From positions 672,001 through 736,000 of the forward strand of contig CM000154.2 in the NCBI GenBank assembly GCA_000004695.1: DNA of 64,000 nucleotides. The letters are read 5' to 3'. Of this stretch, positions 1,097 through 40,805 are shown piece after piece. The notes under the pieces were generated by a model. It was not told where the DNA came from and made no database searches. It worked only from the letters and a program-made list of their open reading frames with translations. A program made the translations under genes and the position numbers. Source of the DNA: Dictyostelium discoideum. Its lineage: Eukaryota. Numbering within the stretch: the first letter of the stretch is position 1; each line of letters opens with the position of its first letter.

Positions 1097-2076
1097 TATT
1101 TTTATTTATTTATTTATTTATCTATTTATTTATTTATTTATTTGATTTTTGTTTACTTTTGCAAAAGTGATGGTTTTTTTTTTTTTTTTTATTTTATTTT
1201 ATACTGGACATTTTTTTAAAATATAAAATTTATTGTATGTAGATTAAACCACCCATTTTAAGTAATTATTTGACTTGTTAGATCATTTTTGAATAAAGTT
1301 TGAAATTAAAGTTATTTTTAATACTTTAATACTTTCCAAATTATAAAAAAAAAAATAAAAAAATAAAAAAAAAAATAAAAAAAAAAAAAAAATTTCAACC
1401 AACAATACCCGTCTCCAATTAATTTTCGAAAAATTCTGAACTTACACCAATATTGTAATCCAAATACCTCATCAAGACAATCCGATTTTTGATGAATTTT
1501 CAATTTTCCTACTTTTATGAATTTAAAAATAAAATTATCATCATCATCACAAAAAGCCTTTATTTAAAAAAAAAAAAAAAAAAAAAAAAATGCAGTTCGC
1601 TAAAATAAAAAGACATCAAAAAAAAAAAAAAAAAAAATTTATATATTTTTAAAAATAAATATATATATATAATTTTTATATATTAAAAAATTTCAAACTA
1701 ATATATTTTTTTTTTTAAAAAACATTGATGGTTGGTTGTTATTAAAATGATAATGCATATAAAAATTTCAAAATTTAGTTTGTTTTCTTAAAAATTTTCA
1801 TTTTTGTTTGCGAAAAAATTGATATTTTTTTTTTTTCGAAAAGACCCATAAAAAACAAAAAATGTTAATCAATTGCCCTTAAATTATAAATTTTAAACAT
1901 ATGTTGTTGGGAATTATTAGGACATCAGGTTTAAAACCTATTCAGACACCAGAATACAATTTGAATTGAGCGGGCAACGTTCCTTTCACTCTGCACTACA
2001 TCAGCATTACTAGAGAGAAAGGTTGAAAAACCTCTATCGAAGGTGGTGGAACTGCTGAGAAGTAACAGCAATAAAT

Positions 2077-2804
2077 AAAACATTCAAACCGATAGATGAG
2101 AGGTTCAAAATCCATCCAGTTAGTAGGGACTAAAAAACTACAAAACATAAACCCGATCCGATACCTAAGACTCCTTTTTTTTTTTTTTTTTTTTTTTTTA
2201 ATAAATCAAATAAGGTGAGATACAACACAGCAATACCCAAAGTATTCATAAACATCAACAGCATTTCTCACCAAAAAGGTAGAAACACCCTCTTCAGATT
2301 CTTCTCAAGATCACTTCCAGGTATCAACCACGAAAGAGACACCAGATGCAAGATCTGTGGCCACCTATTCAGAGACCCTTATTCTCACCTCTTCACTCTA
2401 TGCCAAGATATCCTAGATATTGAAAAAACCATCATATCAACAGTTAACAAACTATCATTCATCAAAATCCACAGATGGTCAATGGAAACCTTAGACATAT
2501 CAAAATACAACAGAACTGAGAGAATCTTCCCCAATCTCATAGGAATAATAGCACACCAATTATGGAAGATAATCTGTCACAAATTGTTCAACACTGATGA
2601 AAGCAAACCAGAGCCAAAATTCGAACAAAAGGTCATAGAAACAGAATTACTAAATCTCATCGAAACTGAAAAATTCATCACACTAAAGAAAATCAAACAC
2701 GACGAAGCAATACTAAAAAACACCAATCAAGATCTTCACAAATACAAATTCAACAAAGCCTGGCAAACCCCAGCAGCTCCGAACCCTCTTCCAATTTAAG
2801 TAGT

Positions 2805-17906: not shown

Positions 17907-20602
17907 TTAAAGTTTTTCATTATATTCTTCAAGAGTTGGTAATTTTGGATTTAAACCTTTTCTCTTTCTAATTGATGAAGCTACTTCAGTTGATCTTTTA
18001 TCTTGACCAACGATACCAATTGAACTCCAATGATCAAAAACACATTGAGGGAAAGCTTGACCAGCAGTACTTGAACGTAAATCAGCAGTGAGACCAAATG
18101 ATTCCATTACAGGAAGATAAGCTTTGATATTGAATAATGGAGTACCAATACGACGTTCTTCACCAATGACAACACCTCTTCTACGATTGAGTACAGAGTA
18201 GATACCACTAATACCACTTTCAGGAGTACTAATATCAACCAAATACATTGGTTCCAAAAGTGTTGGTTGAGCTGATAGTTGGGAGGCATACATTACACGA
18301 CGAGTTGTTGGAATAAATTGACCACTACCTCTATGAATTGCATCGGCATGAAGCATTACATCATAAACGTTGAAACGAATCGATCTCATTTTCTCACCAC
18401 ATAATACACCTTCATTTGAGATCCATTGGAATGCTGAAACCATAGAGTCTTTAATTTCATGAAGATATTGAACACCTTTGGTTTTGTTAACTAAAACATT
18501 TGGACCCTTATATTCTGGACCAAATGACCAAATGTTAACTGCATCATTCTTATCCCAAGAATGTTTATCATAGAGATAATTGGCACGACTTTTAACATCT
18601 TGATTAAAAGCCACCAAACCATTATCAATATCATCAGTTAGGTCTGACGATAATGGTTCAGATTTCATGTAGATACGATTGTGTTTATTTGGTGATTTTG
18701 CAAGACACATGATTTTTGATTCCTCTGAAACAGATTCACAAAATGATACCACTGGATCAGAGGTAATAATTTCAATGCCTGCATGATCTTCTTCAAGGTC
18801 TTTAAGACAAATTTCCAAGTGAAGTTCACCTGCACCAGCAACAATATGTTCACCAGATGTTTCGGTGATACATAAAACACATGGATCAGCTTTTGCTAAA
18901 ATTTTAAGACCTTCAATAAGTTTTGGTAGTTCAGATGGATTCTTTGGTTGTACAGCCACCCGGACTACGGGAGAAACCGAGAATTTCATAACTCTTATAT
19001 TATGAGCCGTTTCTTCCGTAGAAATCGTACCAGATTTAACCAAGAACTGGTCTACACCAACCAAACCAATGATATTACCACATGGACAATCATCGAGAAG
19101 TTCAATCTTTCTACCCATCATAAGTACGGTACGTTGAATTGATTTAAGGTATAGATCATCCTTTTTGCCTGGTACATAATCTGGTCCCATGATACGAACC
19201 TTTTGACCAGTACGGATGGTACCAGAGAAAACACGACCAAATGCATAGAAACGACCTTTATCCGAGGTTGGAATCATTTTAGATACATACATCATCAATG
19301 GACCATTTGGATCACAATTAGCAATAGCCAATGCACATTTATCATCCATTGGACCTTCATAAAGATGACTAACACGATATTTCTGTGCTTCCAATGGTGA
19401 TGGTAAATGAGAGACAACCATTGAAAGAATGGCATCTGAAGCTGGTAAGAACTTTCTCATGATTGATTTGATCAAATTCTTACCCTTCAATTCAGCATCT
19501 TCAGGTGAGAGAGAAATGTTGAGTACTTTCAACATTGAATCGATTCTATCTTGATCTTCATCGATTACTGCACGAGTCAATTTATAAATTGGATCCAAAA
19601 TAAATTGACAAAATGCTCTTTGTAATGGTTTTGCTTCACCACTACCATCATCAGATGAAGGTACATTTGAAGTTTTCCATTTCTTTGATTCTTGATCAAA
19701 GTAATTATCACCCCATAAACGTGACATTAATTTCTCTTCAGAAACACCAAATTTTGAAGCGTAAAGTTTTGCGAATTTACCAATTGTAAAACCCCAACCA
19801 TGTAGGCCAGAACCAAATGCAATTGTACCTTTCTCTGGTGAGAGGTTAATATCACCCATCATACCATTACCAAATTCATTGTTTTCACCAGTACAACCAA
19901 ATGATCCAATTACTACATTTACAGATTCAATGGCTCTTGTAAATGATAAATAGGCATCTTCACTGTTTAATTGGAGTTCCAAAAGAAAACGATCAACCTT
20001 GTTTACAAATAAAACTGGTTTAATACGTTCAGCCATTGCTTGACGTAAAACAGTTTCAGTTTGTACACAAACACCCTCAACACAATCGATAACTACCAAT
20101 GCACCATCGGTAACACGAAGTGCTGCTGTTACTTCAGAACTAAAATCAACATGACCTGGTGAATCAATAAGATTGATCAAGAATTCGTGTGAGCTACAAC
20201 CAGTTGGTAATTTCTCATCTTTTGGCATTTCAAAGTGAAGTGAAACAGATGATGACTTTATGGTAATACCACGTAATTGTTCATCTGGACGACATGACAT
20301 ATATCCTGCATTACCAGATACCTTATCTGCAATAATACCAGCTCTTTGAATTAATGAATCAGTAAGAGTAGTTTTACCATGATCAACACTTTTTTTTTTT
20401 TTATTATTTTAAAAAATAATAAAAATAATAATAATAATAATAATAATAGAAAATAAAAAAAAATATTAATAATTAATAAAATTTTATTAAATAATAATTA
20501 TAAAATAAATTATAATACTTACTGAGCAATAACAGACATATTTCTGATATTTTCACGACGATCCATAATTGAACGAATTTGATCTATTGTAAAATTGACC
20601 AT
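17907..20602 (-). CDS. efbA: Translation elongation factor 2 (EF-2)
   Basis: Exon 1 is 20602..20523 ([32 protein letters not shown] donor). Exon 2 is 20388..17907 ([47 protein letters not shown]…[20 protein letters not shown]…). The diphthamide-region and GTPase motifs are present. Confidence 0.9.
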
Positions 20603-21135
20603 TTTTTTTTTGTTTTAGTTTTTTTAGAAATGAGAGTTTTTAAAATGAATTTTAATAATAAGAGTTTAAAGAGAATAATTGTACAAAGGCAAATTAAAGT
20701 TTGGCCAATGTAGGGGAAAAATAAAGTTTAAGTTTTATTAATTTTGTTTTGTATATGTAATAATATTTATTATTGATATGACAAAAATAAAAAAAAAAAA
20801 ATTTTGTTTAAATAGTTTTCCTTTGGCCAAAAAAAAAATATTTGGGAAAATAGAAAGAAAATATATTATAATTTTAATATAAAAAAAAAAACAACCCCCC
20901 AATCAATATTAATTTTTACAAAGACATCAATTCTGAACATATTTTCAATTTCATTTTTTTTTTATATAAAAAAAGAAAACTCAAAAACCAAAGAAAAAAA
21001 AAAAGTCCTTTCCAAACTATTTCTTTTAAAATATTAAATCTTTTTTCAATCTAATGTTATCAAAAAAAACTTTTTACATTACATTTTTTTAAAAAAAAAA
21101 AAAAAAAAAACTCCCATAATTTTTAAAATTAATTA

Positions 21136-21293
21136 AAAATGTTCTAATTTAATTTTAAAAATGACATTATTTTAATAGGGTGGCCTTACCAGCATCAAAT
21201 TCTATCCTTTCGAGACCCATTTGGTGGGATGTGTGGAGAAATCCATACAGTTGGTTCAATTCCAATCTTGAAAACAAATAAATCTTGCCATCT

Positions 21294-21340
<47 letters not shown>

Positions 21341-21500
21341 TGTTCTAATTTAATTTTAAAAATGACATTATTTTAATAGGGTGGCCTTACCAGCATCAAA
21401 TTTTATCCTTTCGAGACCCATTTGGTGGGATGTGTGGAGAAATCCATACAGTTGGTTTGATTCTAATCTTGAAATCAAATAAATCTTACCATCTGTTTTT
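21136..21500 (+). repeat. Tandem duplication of a roughly 160-bp unit carrying a tRNA-like B box (GGTTCAATTCC), each copy ending in a T-run; candidate Pol III ncRNA or tRNA-derived element
   Basis: Copy 1 is 21136..21294, followed by T(41). Copy 2 is 21336..21495, followed by TTTTT, at about 96% identity. Both carry '…ccatacagttGGTTCAATTCCaatcttg…', which forms a T-arm-like stem-loop, and an upstream 'ggccttaccagcatcaa'. Confidence 0.4.
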
Positions 21501-22048
21501 ATCGACACTGAGTTTGGTGTATTTTATTTGGTAATAATTGCATTATTGCTTACTAAAATTAGGTTGTTATTATTGGTGCTTTTAGACTTTTTTGATTAGG
21601 TGAGGGATTTTCTTTCTTTTTTCCCAAAAAAATTTATTAAAAAAAAAATTATAAAAAATAAAATAAAACATTCAAAATAATGGGTTCAAATCTTGGTCTG
21701 ACCACGAATTAACAAATAATAATAATATTAATAAAAATAACTTAATTTTAAAAAATAAAATAAAAAGGATAGTCGACAAGTTTTTTTTTGAGGGAAAGGA
21801 AATTATATATATTTTTTTTTTTTTTTTTTTAAAAATTAGGATATTTAAAAAAAAATCATTAATAAAAAAAAAATTAAAAACAAATTTTATTGTATCTCAT
21901 TTTTTGGTATATCCTTTTTTAATTAAAAAAAAAAACACCAACCAATTATGTGTTTTTATTTTTTAATTAAAAAAAAAAAAAAAAATTGTAATAATAACAA
22001 TTTTTTGAAAATATCCCATTTAAAAAATATCTTAATTTGATTTTTTTG

Positions 22049-22090
<42 letters not shown>

Positions 22091-22102
22091 CACAAAAATT
22101 AT

Positions 22103-22136
<34 letters not shown>

Positions 22137-40715: not shown

Positions 40716-40805
40716 TGCCCGAGCTCAGAATCGAACTGAGGACCCTCTGTTATCGCTTTAGTACATAGTACAAGACAGATATAATAACCACTATACGACA
40801 CGGGC
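40716..40805 (-). tRNA. Intron-containing tRNA gene, anticodon most likely UGU (Thr); 73-nt mature body plus a 17-nt intron
   Basis: The minus strand reads GCCCGTGTCGTATAGTGGTTATTATATCTGTCTTGTA[CTATGTACTAAAGCGAT]AACAGAGGGTCCTCAGTTCGATTCTGAGCTCGGGCA. Features: D-loop AGTGGTTA, anticodon stem TCTGT/ACAGA, loop CTTGTAA with the intron after position 37, T-arm CTCAG-TTCGATT-CTGAG, a 7-bp acceptor stem with one U•U, and discriminator A. It is immediately followed by GTTTTT, a Pol III terminator. Confidence 0.7.

Follow-up and report, generated by a model that had tools for sequence, protein, structure and literature searches.

The 64-kb window of the Dictyostelium discoideum AX4 genome analyzed here (the whole stretch of DNA) contains a short tandem duplication between a minus-strand EF-2 gene and a plus-strand zf-UBR gene, which is the location given in the original prediction, made from the letters of the DNA. 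Both copies are on the plus strand. The first, copy 1, is a conserved non-coding RNA gene that is probably expressed, and its sequence suggests a divergent member of the dictyostelid Class I RNAs that carries a domain resembling a transfer RNA (tRNA). The proposal that a small non-coding RNA gene is present at this locus was supported by a conserved upstream promoter element, by synteny, and by a covarying secondary structure.

Tandem Repeats Finder identified a single array at 21133-21500, with a period of 201 bp, 1.8 copies, 96% matches, and zero indels. Comparison of the unit with the window by BLAST gave 96.4% identity across 167 nt, with 6 mismatches, so the head-to-tail pair at about 96% identity that had been predicted was borne out, as were the runs of 41 and 5 Ts after the copies (21295-21335, and TTTTT directly 3' of copy 2). 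No third copy of the repeat unit was found by BLAST across the 64-kb window. The 160-bp units that were predicted to correspond to the transcript overstated its size, as the RNA body is ~117 nt and each unit begins with 45 nt of DNA that lies upstream of it. The features of the locus are:

21112-21119, plus strand: Dictyostelium upstream sequence element (DUSE), TCCCATAA, an exact match to [AT]CCCA[CT]AA
21133-21500, plus strand: the whole tandem duplication, with units at 21133-21333 and 21334-21500 (Tandem Repeats Finder, BLAST)
21179-21295, plus strand: copy 1, predicted mature RNA of ~117 nt, starting with the 5' G and ending with the 3' CUGU
21179-21184, plus strand: 5' strand of the 6-bp terminal stem, GGUGGC, which pairs with 21287-21292
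21184-21194, plus strand: Class I-like motif CCUUACCAGCA, at an edit distance of 2 from the consensus CCUUACAGCAA
21208-21274, plus strand: tRNA-like cloverleaf domain, with acceptor 21208-21214 paired to 21267-21273 and a discriminator-like A at 21274
21216-21228, plus strand: D-like hairpin, CCCA UUUGG UGGG, with GG kept in the loop
21231-21248, plus strand: 7-bp hairpin, GUGUGGA GAAA UCCAUAC, at the place of the tRNA anticodon arm or long variable arm; the tetraloop is invariant
21250-21266, plus strand: T arm, GUUGG UUCAAUU CCAAU, whose loop fits T54-Psi55-C56-R57-A58; the DNA is the B-box-like GGTTCAATTCC
21287-21295, plus strand: 3' strand of the terminal stem, GCCAUC (21287-21292), and 3' end CUGU (21292-21295)
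21295-21335, plus strand: run of 41 Ts between the copies, the first of which is the final base of CUGU; it may act as a terminator
21380-21496, plus strand: copy 2, a promoterless duplicate that is apparently decaying

The DUSE ends 59 nt before the 5' G at 21179 (67 nt from the start of the DUSE). Because it is outside the repeat unit, it serves copy 1 only. It had gone unnoticed in the original prediction. The DUSE is the upstream element of dictyostelid non-coding RNA genes and is expected ~60-63 nt upstream (PMC7919456, PMC3188802). Every expressed Class I gene had a DUSE at ~60 nt, and high-scoring loci without one were unexpressed (PMC7919456). The same element precedes the Class I and Class II genes and every spliceosomal RNA gene from U1 to U6 (PMC3188802), and for this reason it does not identify the polymerase. 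The assignment of the locus to RNA polymerase III in the original prediction was therefore not upheld, as the conserved promoter element is an upstream DUSE of the kind that is common to spliceosomal RNA genes. The prediction of a B box in each copy held for copy 1, which carries GGTTCAATTCC, and not for copy 2, which reads GGTTTGATTCT. No box A was recognizable by eye. The only candidate for a TGTG box was AAATGTT, 42 nt upstream of the 5' G, which sits ~18 nt downstream of the DUSE instead of ~60 and is unconserved in the orthologues; it was rejected as a promoter element.

Syntenic regions were retrieved with the EF-2 paralogue and the UBR protein as anchors. They came from a near-identical D. 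discoideum assembly (GCA_054883475.1, locus L001), D. citrinum (L002), D. dimigraforme (L003), D. firmibasis (L004), and a divergent D. discoideum lineage (L007). The RNA was found by BLAST in every syntenic region at 75-90% identity. The DUSE and the RNA together formed a separate aligned block in the intergenic region, and the other blocks aligned across species adjoined the flanking genes. In all five functional copies, the TCCCATAA octamer ended 57-59 nt before the 5' G, and the 3' end of the RNA was CUGU followed by Ts. The T-run at this position was T18 in L007, T14 in D. citrinum, only TTTT in D. dimigraforme, and TTTATTTT in D. firmibasis; T-runs are uninformative in a genome with a G+C content of 25% (24.7% in the window). 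Copy 1 has a G+C content of 40%, compared to that 24.7%, and the functional copies range from 39 to 42%, while the two copy-2 sequences have 37-38%. The length of the functional RNA is 115-120 nt across the orthologues. In D. dimigraforme (L003 8092-8304), the DUSE and the RNA were inverted together, while the order and orientation of the EF-2 paralogue and the UBR gene were unchanged. This joint inversion fits a self-contained transcription unit.

A covariance model of the RNA, R1, was built from a plain MAFFT alignment. It found exactly eight copies in the 166 kb made up of the window and the syntenic loci, at 99-144 bits (136.9 for copy 1). It had no match in 76 kb of other, more distant dictyostelid loci, and none in the UBR-paralogue loci of 'Dictyostelium cf. 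discoideum' and Polysphondylium violaceum. These results bear on the suggestion that the repeat is a tRNA-derived short interspersed nuclear element (SINE) or a fragment of the TRE or DIRS type. The B-box-like sequence, the adjacent T-run, and the repeat itself are what such an element would show. However, a SINE is expected to have many dispersed, non-syntenic copies, and the regions examined had one syntenic locus each, at a single position in each of four species. R1 found no extra copy in the 166 kb or the 76 kb, BLAST found none in the window, and the two copies are a local head-to-tail duplication common to two lineages. The earlier suggestion of a SINE-like element was thus contradicted, and this origin is considered extremely improbable.

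The secondary structure was evaluated with a hand-made structural alignment of the five orthologues in which every row was checked against the DNA. It contains 29 pairs in five helices: the 6-bp terminal stem, a 7-bp acceptor-like stem, a 4-bp D-like stem, the 7-bp hairpin capped by GAAA, and a 5-bp T stem. Standard pairs were present in 143 of the 145 cells, and 8 of the 29 pairs had changed on both sides. The terminal stem reads GGUGGC/GCCAUC, GGUGGC/GUCAUC, or, in D. firmibasis, GAUGAU/AUCAUC; all 30 of its cells are paired and two of its pairs are doubly changed. When the two pseudogene copies were counted as well, this helix was 95% paired. Pair 6 of the acceptor changed from A-U to G-C in two lineages, and the D-like stem varied among CCCA/UGGG, CCUU/GAGG, and CCUC/GAGG. 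In the GAAA hairpin, pair 1 is G-C or U-A, pair 2 is U-A, A-U, or G-C, and pair 5 is G-C or A-U. The cells of the T stem are all paired, and the T loops of the orthologues are UUCGAUU or UUCGAGU. Compensatory changes were found in every helix except the T stem.

An alignment fitted to R1, which leans towards structure, had 97.7% of its cells paired, versus 38-52% when the partners were slid by 1-3 columns, and none of 500 shuffles reached the observed pairing or covariation score. RNAalifold, applied to the unfitted MAFFT alignment, independently produced a terminal stem enclosing a four-way cloverleaf. The cloverleaf was also the minimum-energy structure of the 67-nt domain alone in four of the five orthologues. 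The minimum-energy fold of the full-length AX4 copy 1 is not the cloverleaf, and the single-sequence folds of the full RNA had z-scores of only -1.5 and -1.6, values that are uninformative alone; the fold was decided by the comparative data. Read from the opposite strand, four G.U pairs, of which three are invariant, would turn into C.A, and this fixes the plus strand as that of the RNA.

The original prediction had stated that the unit does not fold into a complete canonical tRNA cloverleaf. This was correct in that ARAGORN called no tRNA at the locus in a search of the whole window, and incorrect in that a cloverleaf-like four-way junction does form. Similarly, the T arm that it described is present in canonical form, with a stem of 5 bp (GUUGG/CCAAU) rather than GTTG/CAAT. 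No Rfam family was reported at the locus at gathering thresholds. In a permissive Rfam scan of 21000-21700 that retained sub-threshold matches (E <= 10), the best match in the tRNA clan was the selenocysteine tRNA (tRNA-Sec) model, RF01852, with 21.4 bits at 21207-21274 in AX4. The same model gave 26.0 bits in D. citrinum (E 0.0048 in a small search), skipping the anticodon arm and aligning the GAAA hairpin as the long variable arm, and in D. firmibasis there was a local match spanning the variable arm and the T arm. The D arm in D. citrinum, D. dimigraforme, and D. firmibasis has a 6-7 bp stem and a 4-nt loop, which is a tRNA-Sec trait. With its G-to-A change, D. firmibasis retains the T-stem pair of the 7/5 geometry, and the data are compatible with 9/4 as well as with 7/5.

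The GG of the D loop and the T loop UUCRAUU were conserved across the orthologues. With a T loop that fits T54-Psi55-C56-R57-A58 and a GG in each D loop, the parts that form a tRNA elbow are present; the structure is tRNA-like, and a three-dimensional elbow would be expected of it. There is no anticodon loop, since a GAAA tetraloop caps the arm that occupies the anticodon position, and the domain does not qualify as a functional tRNA. It is not a tRNA-Sec either: the D arm and the hairpin resembling a variable arm fit, and the anticodon arm is absent. Judged from the Rfam models and from its shape, the domain appears closest to a tRNA-Sec-like or class II-like body without an anticodon arm. 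It resembles these tRNAs (RF01852, clan CL00001) in the stacked acceptor and T arm, the D hairpin, and the hairpin 5' of the T arm. It differs from them in that the anticodon arm is missing, so that it cannot decode, and in that the acceptor ends inside a 29-nt leader and a 21-nt trailer. Vertebrate tRNA-Sec genes are known to combine an upstream promoter with an internal B box. A pattern scan of metagenomes (TGGAGAAATYCAN{3,10}TTGGTTCRANTCCAA) recovered no homologue; its two matches, on unrelated contigs, were both ordinary class II tRNAs. These tRNAs carry UGGA-GAAA-UCCA variable arms, the same resemblance as that seen in the GAAA hairpin.

The two copies are not equivalent. No DUSE was found within 120 nt upstream of copy 2 in AX4, and the element is absent upstream of both copy-2 sequences (AX4 and L007). 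The ancestral state at the six sites that differ between the AX4 copies was set by the orthologues. In copy 1 a single change is derived, a G57-to-A substitution in the T loop that retains a purine. The five derived changes of copy 2 are a C56-to-U substitution in the T loop, a C-to-U substitution in the T stem, a change that leaves a C.A mismatch in the terminal stem, and single changes in the leader and the trailer. The mean probability of the proposed pairs was 0.65 for copy 1 versus 0.36 for copy 2. Two copies are also present in the divergent lineage L007, and the duplication is thus more than a chance match. In that lineage, copy 1 is intact with new compensatory changes, while copy 2 is again without a DUSE, carries the same C.A mismatch, and is missing 7 nt of the T arm. 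Because both copies are shared with L007, the duplication predates the split of the lineages and copy 2 has been decaying since. Copy 2 is apparently a silent, decaying pseudogene produced by an old tandem duplication that left out the DUSE. The pair of equivalent genes that had been predicted was thus not found, as copy 2 lacks the promoter element and its five changes weaken the structure.

The near-identical assembly L001 (4304-4502) is missing exactly one 201-bp unit, so that the DUSE is fused to the body of copy 2. Outside of the repeat, ~4 bases separate it from the window over 12.7 kb. The one-unit state could stem either from unequal crossing-over in the strain or from an assembly collapse at the 41-T run.

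A further possibility is that the locus is a non-functional relic, that is, a degenerate tRNA pseudogene (for example of tRNA-Sec) that was duplicated in tandem and whose likeness to Class I RNAs is coincidental. This would account for the failure of ARAGORN to call a tRNA, for the absence of an Rfam match at threshold, for the clear decay of copy 2, and for the loss of a unit from one assembly. It would not explain why copy 1 is conserved, with constant spacing to its DUSE, across four species and five lineages, or why the promoter and the RNA moved as a unit in D. dimigraforme. A relic is also not expected to have accumulated eight compensatory double changes with 143 of 145 cells still paired, a result that neither the shuffled nor the slid controls reproduced, and copy 1 has one derived change compared to five in copy 2. 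The pseudogene interpretation offered in the original prediction was contradicted by these compensatory changes, and a relic is regarded as highly improbable.

The relationship to Class I RNAs was evaluated feature by feature. The defining features of this family are a DUSE at ~60 nt, a 5' G, a 6-bp end stem, an 11-nt motif, and a 3' CUGU, which is the 3' hallmark of the class and whose C pairs with the 5' G (PMC7919456). The locus has the DUSE at ~60 nt, the 5' G, a covarying 6-bp end stem, and the 3' CUGU, and it is like DdR-21 and its relatives in all of these as well as in having an approximate motif of the CUUACAGCA type, which lies beside the 5' strand of the stem as expected, an intergenic location, and a G+C content of ~40% (32-41% in Class I RNAs, versus the 39-42% of the functional copies). 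As in the known Class I RNAs, it is the structure of the stem, and not its sequence, that is conserved. The motif reads CCUUACCAGCA in AX4, CCUUACAAGCA in the orthologues, and a near-canonical UCUUACAGCAU in D. firmibasis, and can be written as CUUAC(A/C)AGCA. It is 2 edits from CCUUACAGCAA in every lineage; the curated RNAs DdR-57, DdR-65, and DdR-64 differ from the consensus by 2-3 edits. The final A of the motif, a position described as nearly invariant, is not kept at the locus. A descriptor that combined the 5' G, the 6-bp stem, the motif with at most 2 edits, and a 3' CTG had hits only at the functional copies in the 166 kb, and matched once among 40 shuffled versions of the window.

The Rfam Class I model, RF01414, aligned to copy 1 from end to end (21179-21294, 20.9 bits), with ~60 nt in the middle treated as an insertion. 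Its 5' part matches GGUGGC-CUUAcCAGCA, and its 3' part matches CUUGCCAUCUG. The original prediction had noted an inexact upstream resemblance to the Class I motif, and this end-to-end alignment supports it, though below the threshold. Neither the RF01414 match nor the tRNA-Sec match is significant alone. The size of the RNA also sets it apart from typical members: ~117 nt (115-120 nt in the orthologues) compared to a Class I median of ~60 nt, within the 42-141 nt range of the curated set, and with a conserved cloverleaf where most members have a short, unconserved region. Among the curated RNAs, four atypical ones, DdR-64 to DdR-67, measure 77-141 nt, with the DUSE placed at 56-68 nt and a motif that is 1-3 edits off; they lack a strong TGTG box and are weakly expressed or undetected. 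DdR-65 to DdR-67 are like the locus in starting with GG and in having no TGTG box, whereas DdR-64 starts with GT and has a weak TAATGTG.

The gene is not on record in the Class I catalogue of Kjellin 2021 in the sources checked, which agrees with the earlier description of the locus as uncharacterized. Inclusion in that catalogue was based on a model score of at least 15 plus a DUSE score. Its Table S2 (the complete D. discoideum table, model score >= 15) does not contain the locus and has no low-scoring candidate with TCCCATAA. The sequences of copy 1 and its orthologues had no match in the Kjellin 2021 supplements outside of the genome FASTA, and no B-box strings were found inside the curated Class I RNAs of these supplements. 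Copy 1 is assigned, with moderate confidence, to a divergent and uncatalogued gene of the Class I type, the confidence being held at this level because the model thresholds were not reached.

Paired ends and an internal box sequence are also found in the RNA subunits of known ribonucleoproteins, and the RNA could in principle be one of these, such as a vault RNA or a Y-type RNA. Vault and Y RNAs pair both of their ends and carry tRNA-type internal boxes. The locus shares with them the paired ends, the B-box sequence, a length of ~100 nt, and the 3' T-run, and Dictyostelium has vault particles, for which no Dictyostelium vault RNA was described in the vault literature searched. On the other hand, the Rfam models of vault and Y RNAs gave no match, even with the cutoff relaxed to E <= 10, and the frame that is conserved is that of Class I. 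The features of vault RNAs (in part from PMC7904556) with which the locus agrees are the length, the paired ends, the internal box sequences, and the oligo-U 3' end; the locus differs in using an upstream DUSE and in having no recognizable box A. Nothing ties the RNA to such particles, and this identity is judged very unlikely.

Given the gene anatomy, promoter element, synteny, covarying structure, and decay of copy 2 described above, the favored interpretation, which is considered somewhat more probable than all of its competitors together, is that copy 1 is an autonomous, DUSE-driven gene for a ~117-nt non-coding RNA, a divergent Class I RNA in which a tRNA-like cloverleaf replaces the variable region and which works as an intact, two-part adaptor. 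Transcription, an intact product, protein partners, and a function would all be expected under this interpretation. The ends of the RNA would form the Class I handle, consisting of the 5' G, the 6-bp stem, the single-stranded motif of the CUUACAGCA type, and the 3' CUGU. The 67-nt cloverleaf would take the place of the variable region, which is usually short and unstructured, with an acceptor-like stem of 7-8 bp that stacks on the canonical T arm, together with the D-like hairpin and its loop GG and the GAAA hairpin. The RNA would act without being cut: the handle may supply stability, localization, and Class I protein partners such as Rnp1A, while the tRNA-shaped module may dock on a factor that reads the shape of the elbow and of the acceptor and T arm, with no anticodon being read.

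A comparable architecture may exist in the bacterial YrlA RNAs. YrlA RNAs are Y RNA-like RNAs with a tRNA-like domain, in which the stem is a protein-binding handle. By analogy, the locus would share with them the end-stem handle and the internal mimic of acceptor, T arm, and D arm with a shortened 'anticodon' side. YrlA belongs to another domain of life and has a helix that binds Ro/Rsr in place of the Class I stem and motif, and there is no homology between the two.

The main competitor of the intact adaptor is a processed RNA. RNase P and RNase Z recognize the acceptor, the T arm, and the elbow of tRNAs. Cloverleaf elements are freed by these two enzymes from the long RNA polymerase II transcripts that they end, as in the case of mascRNA and the MEN-beta element at the 3' ends of MALAT1 and NEAT1. 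The locus could likewise encode the precursor of a small tRNA-like RNA, with RNase P cutting before U21208 and RNase Z after 21274 to leave a ~67-nt cloverleaf product, to which CCA would possibly be added; the flanks would then provide promoter spacing, stability, or control of processing. The 7-bp acceptor on a 5-bp T arm, the UUCRAUU loop, the GG of the D loop, the single-stranded flanks, and the unpaired base after the acceptor are all suited to such cleavage, and no other part of the transcript is as well conserved as the cloverleaf. Like the elements just named, the domain is a non-decoding cloverleaf within a larger non-coding transcript. The locus differs from them in that the host is only 117 nt, the flanks are conserved and paired, and there is no sequence relationship. 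Conservation of the flanks is an argument against a mascRNA-type precursor. The distal leader pairs with the trailer, with the compensatory change between GGUGGC/GCCAUC and GAUGAU/AUCAUC, and the leader motif is conserved while the neighboring bases drift, which argues for selection on the flanks. Because the terminal stem covaries and the leader motif is maintained while the rest of the leader and trailer drifts, the flanks do not appear to be merely discarded. Processing of this kind is thought unlikely, if clearly less so than the other alternatives considered so far.

Several points weigh against the intact Class I adaptor. The 20.9 bits of the RF01414 match compare to a gathering threshold of 41.5, a shortfall for which the 60-nt insertion is the obvious cause, and at E <= 10 neither the D. 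citrinum nor the D. firmibasis orthologue gave an RF01414 match. The Kjellin covariance model evidently scored the locus below 15, and the motif has a 1-nt insertion in four of the five lineages, another respect in which the locus differs from the known Class I RNAs. For the tRNA-like half, the tRNA-Sec scores are 15-26 bits compared to a gathering score of 47. Only five independent sequences, all of a single shallow clade, enter the comparison; several compensatory changes represent one event each, and alignment of the D arm is ambiguous in D. firmibasis. In the strain represented by L001, either the ancestral-type copy is dispensable or the assembly collapsed. The transcript, its ends, and its size are predictions, and the protein partners and function are entirely inferred. 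Finally, the elbow that a docking factor would read is also what RNase P and RNase Z recognize, so the RNA might be cut.

If the RNA is an intact Class I adaptor, it would be of interest for a family that is abundant, restricted to dictyostelids, and needed for normal early development by a mechanism that is unexplained (PMC7919456). Knockout of DdR-21 affects early development. The variable region that mimics a tRNA would offer a handle for experiments on Class I function. Models tuned to 60-nt members miss chimeric relatives, and the family may be larger and more varied than catalogued. Copy 2 provides a built-in control, having the same body, no DUSE, and signs of decay, and the L001 strain is apparently a second one. 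If the RNA is instead processed, the locus would point to a mascRNA-type pathway in an amoeba.

A broader interpretation, considered quite unlikely, is that Class I RNAs in general are a modular display scaffold, in which a handle bound by Rnp1A-type proteins presents exchangeable mimics of RNAs from the translation apparatus. The body described here might then dock, for example, on seryl-tRNA synthetase or the tRNA-Sec machinery, or alternatively on the ribosome together with the EF-2 paralogue, which is divergently transcribed ~0.5 kb away and is found in the same four species. If this were true, the function of Class I RNAs would be the control of translation at the switch from growth to development.

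Two of the atypical Class I RNAs, DdR-66 and DdR-67, also contain an inserted segment, which presumably resembles the region of the large-subunit ribosomal RNA (rRNA) flanking expansion segment ES27. In the curated sequences this insert reads GTAGAATAGGTGGGAG...GTGAAATACCACC, and its 3' part matches a fragment of 28S rRNA (mouse) in PMC6052916. In the supplement of PMC7919456 (ddi_curated.fa), the segment is found as GTAGAATAGGTGGGAGAC...CCGTGAAATACCACCAC. The main text of PMC7919456 does not mention DdR-66 or DdR-67, and mentions rRNA only in unrelated contexts. The comparison suggests that long Class I members in general may display pieces of the translation apparatus.

The protein-coding neighbors of the RNA were also compared. 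The EF-2 gene has its ATG at 20602, one intron, and an 853-amino-acid product that was 100% identical to an NCBI D. discoideum AX4 protein in a homology search. It is a divergent paralogue, with 73-77% identity to the ordinary dictyostelid EF-2 of 837-843 amino acids, and its orthologues (86-90% identity) were seen only in D. citrinum, D. dimigraforme, and D. firmibasis. In the paralogue (17907-20602, minus strand), both the GTPase motifs and the diphthamide site, DAIHRG, are intact. It is found in the same species as the tRNA-like RNA, always at ~0.6-1.9 kb from it. In D. citrinum, a SUI1 (eIF1-type) gene was called between the UBR gene and the RNA (L002 8666-8995), and no SUI1 gene was called at this position in the loci of the other species. 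The 1602-amino-acid protein at the UBR position in D. citrinum has no Pfam hit on record. The intergenic region of the window also contains a T-rich run of ~81 bp (88% T) at 22051-22131, upstream of the UBR gene.

Elsewhere in the window, a second exact DUSE, ACCCATAA, is present at 1844-1851 on the plus strand, and ~230 bp that look richer in G+C follow at ~1905-2135, ~55-60 nt downstream. The stretch after this DUSE has no open reading frame of at least 40 amino acids on the plus strand and three of 50 amino acids on the minus strand, and no Rfam family matched 1844-2140 even at E <= 10. This region (1844-2140, plus strand) may be a candidate for another uncatalogued, DUSE-driven non-coding RNA gene. 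Lastly, a tRNA gene that the whole-window ARAGORN search missed was identified by Rfam at 40716-40805 on the minus strand (47.7 bits), with a 19-nt intron.

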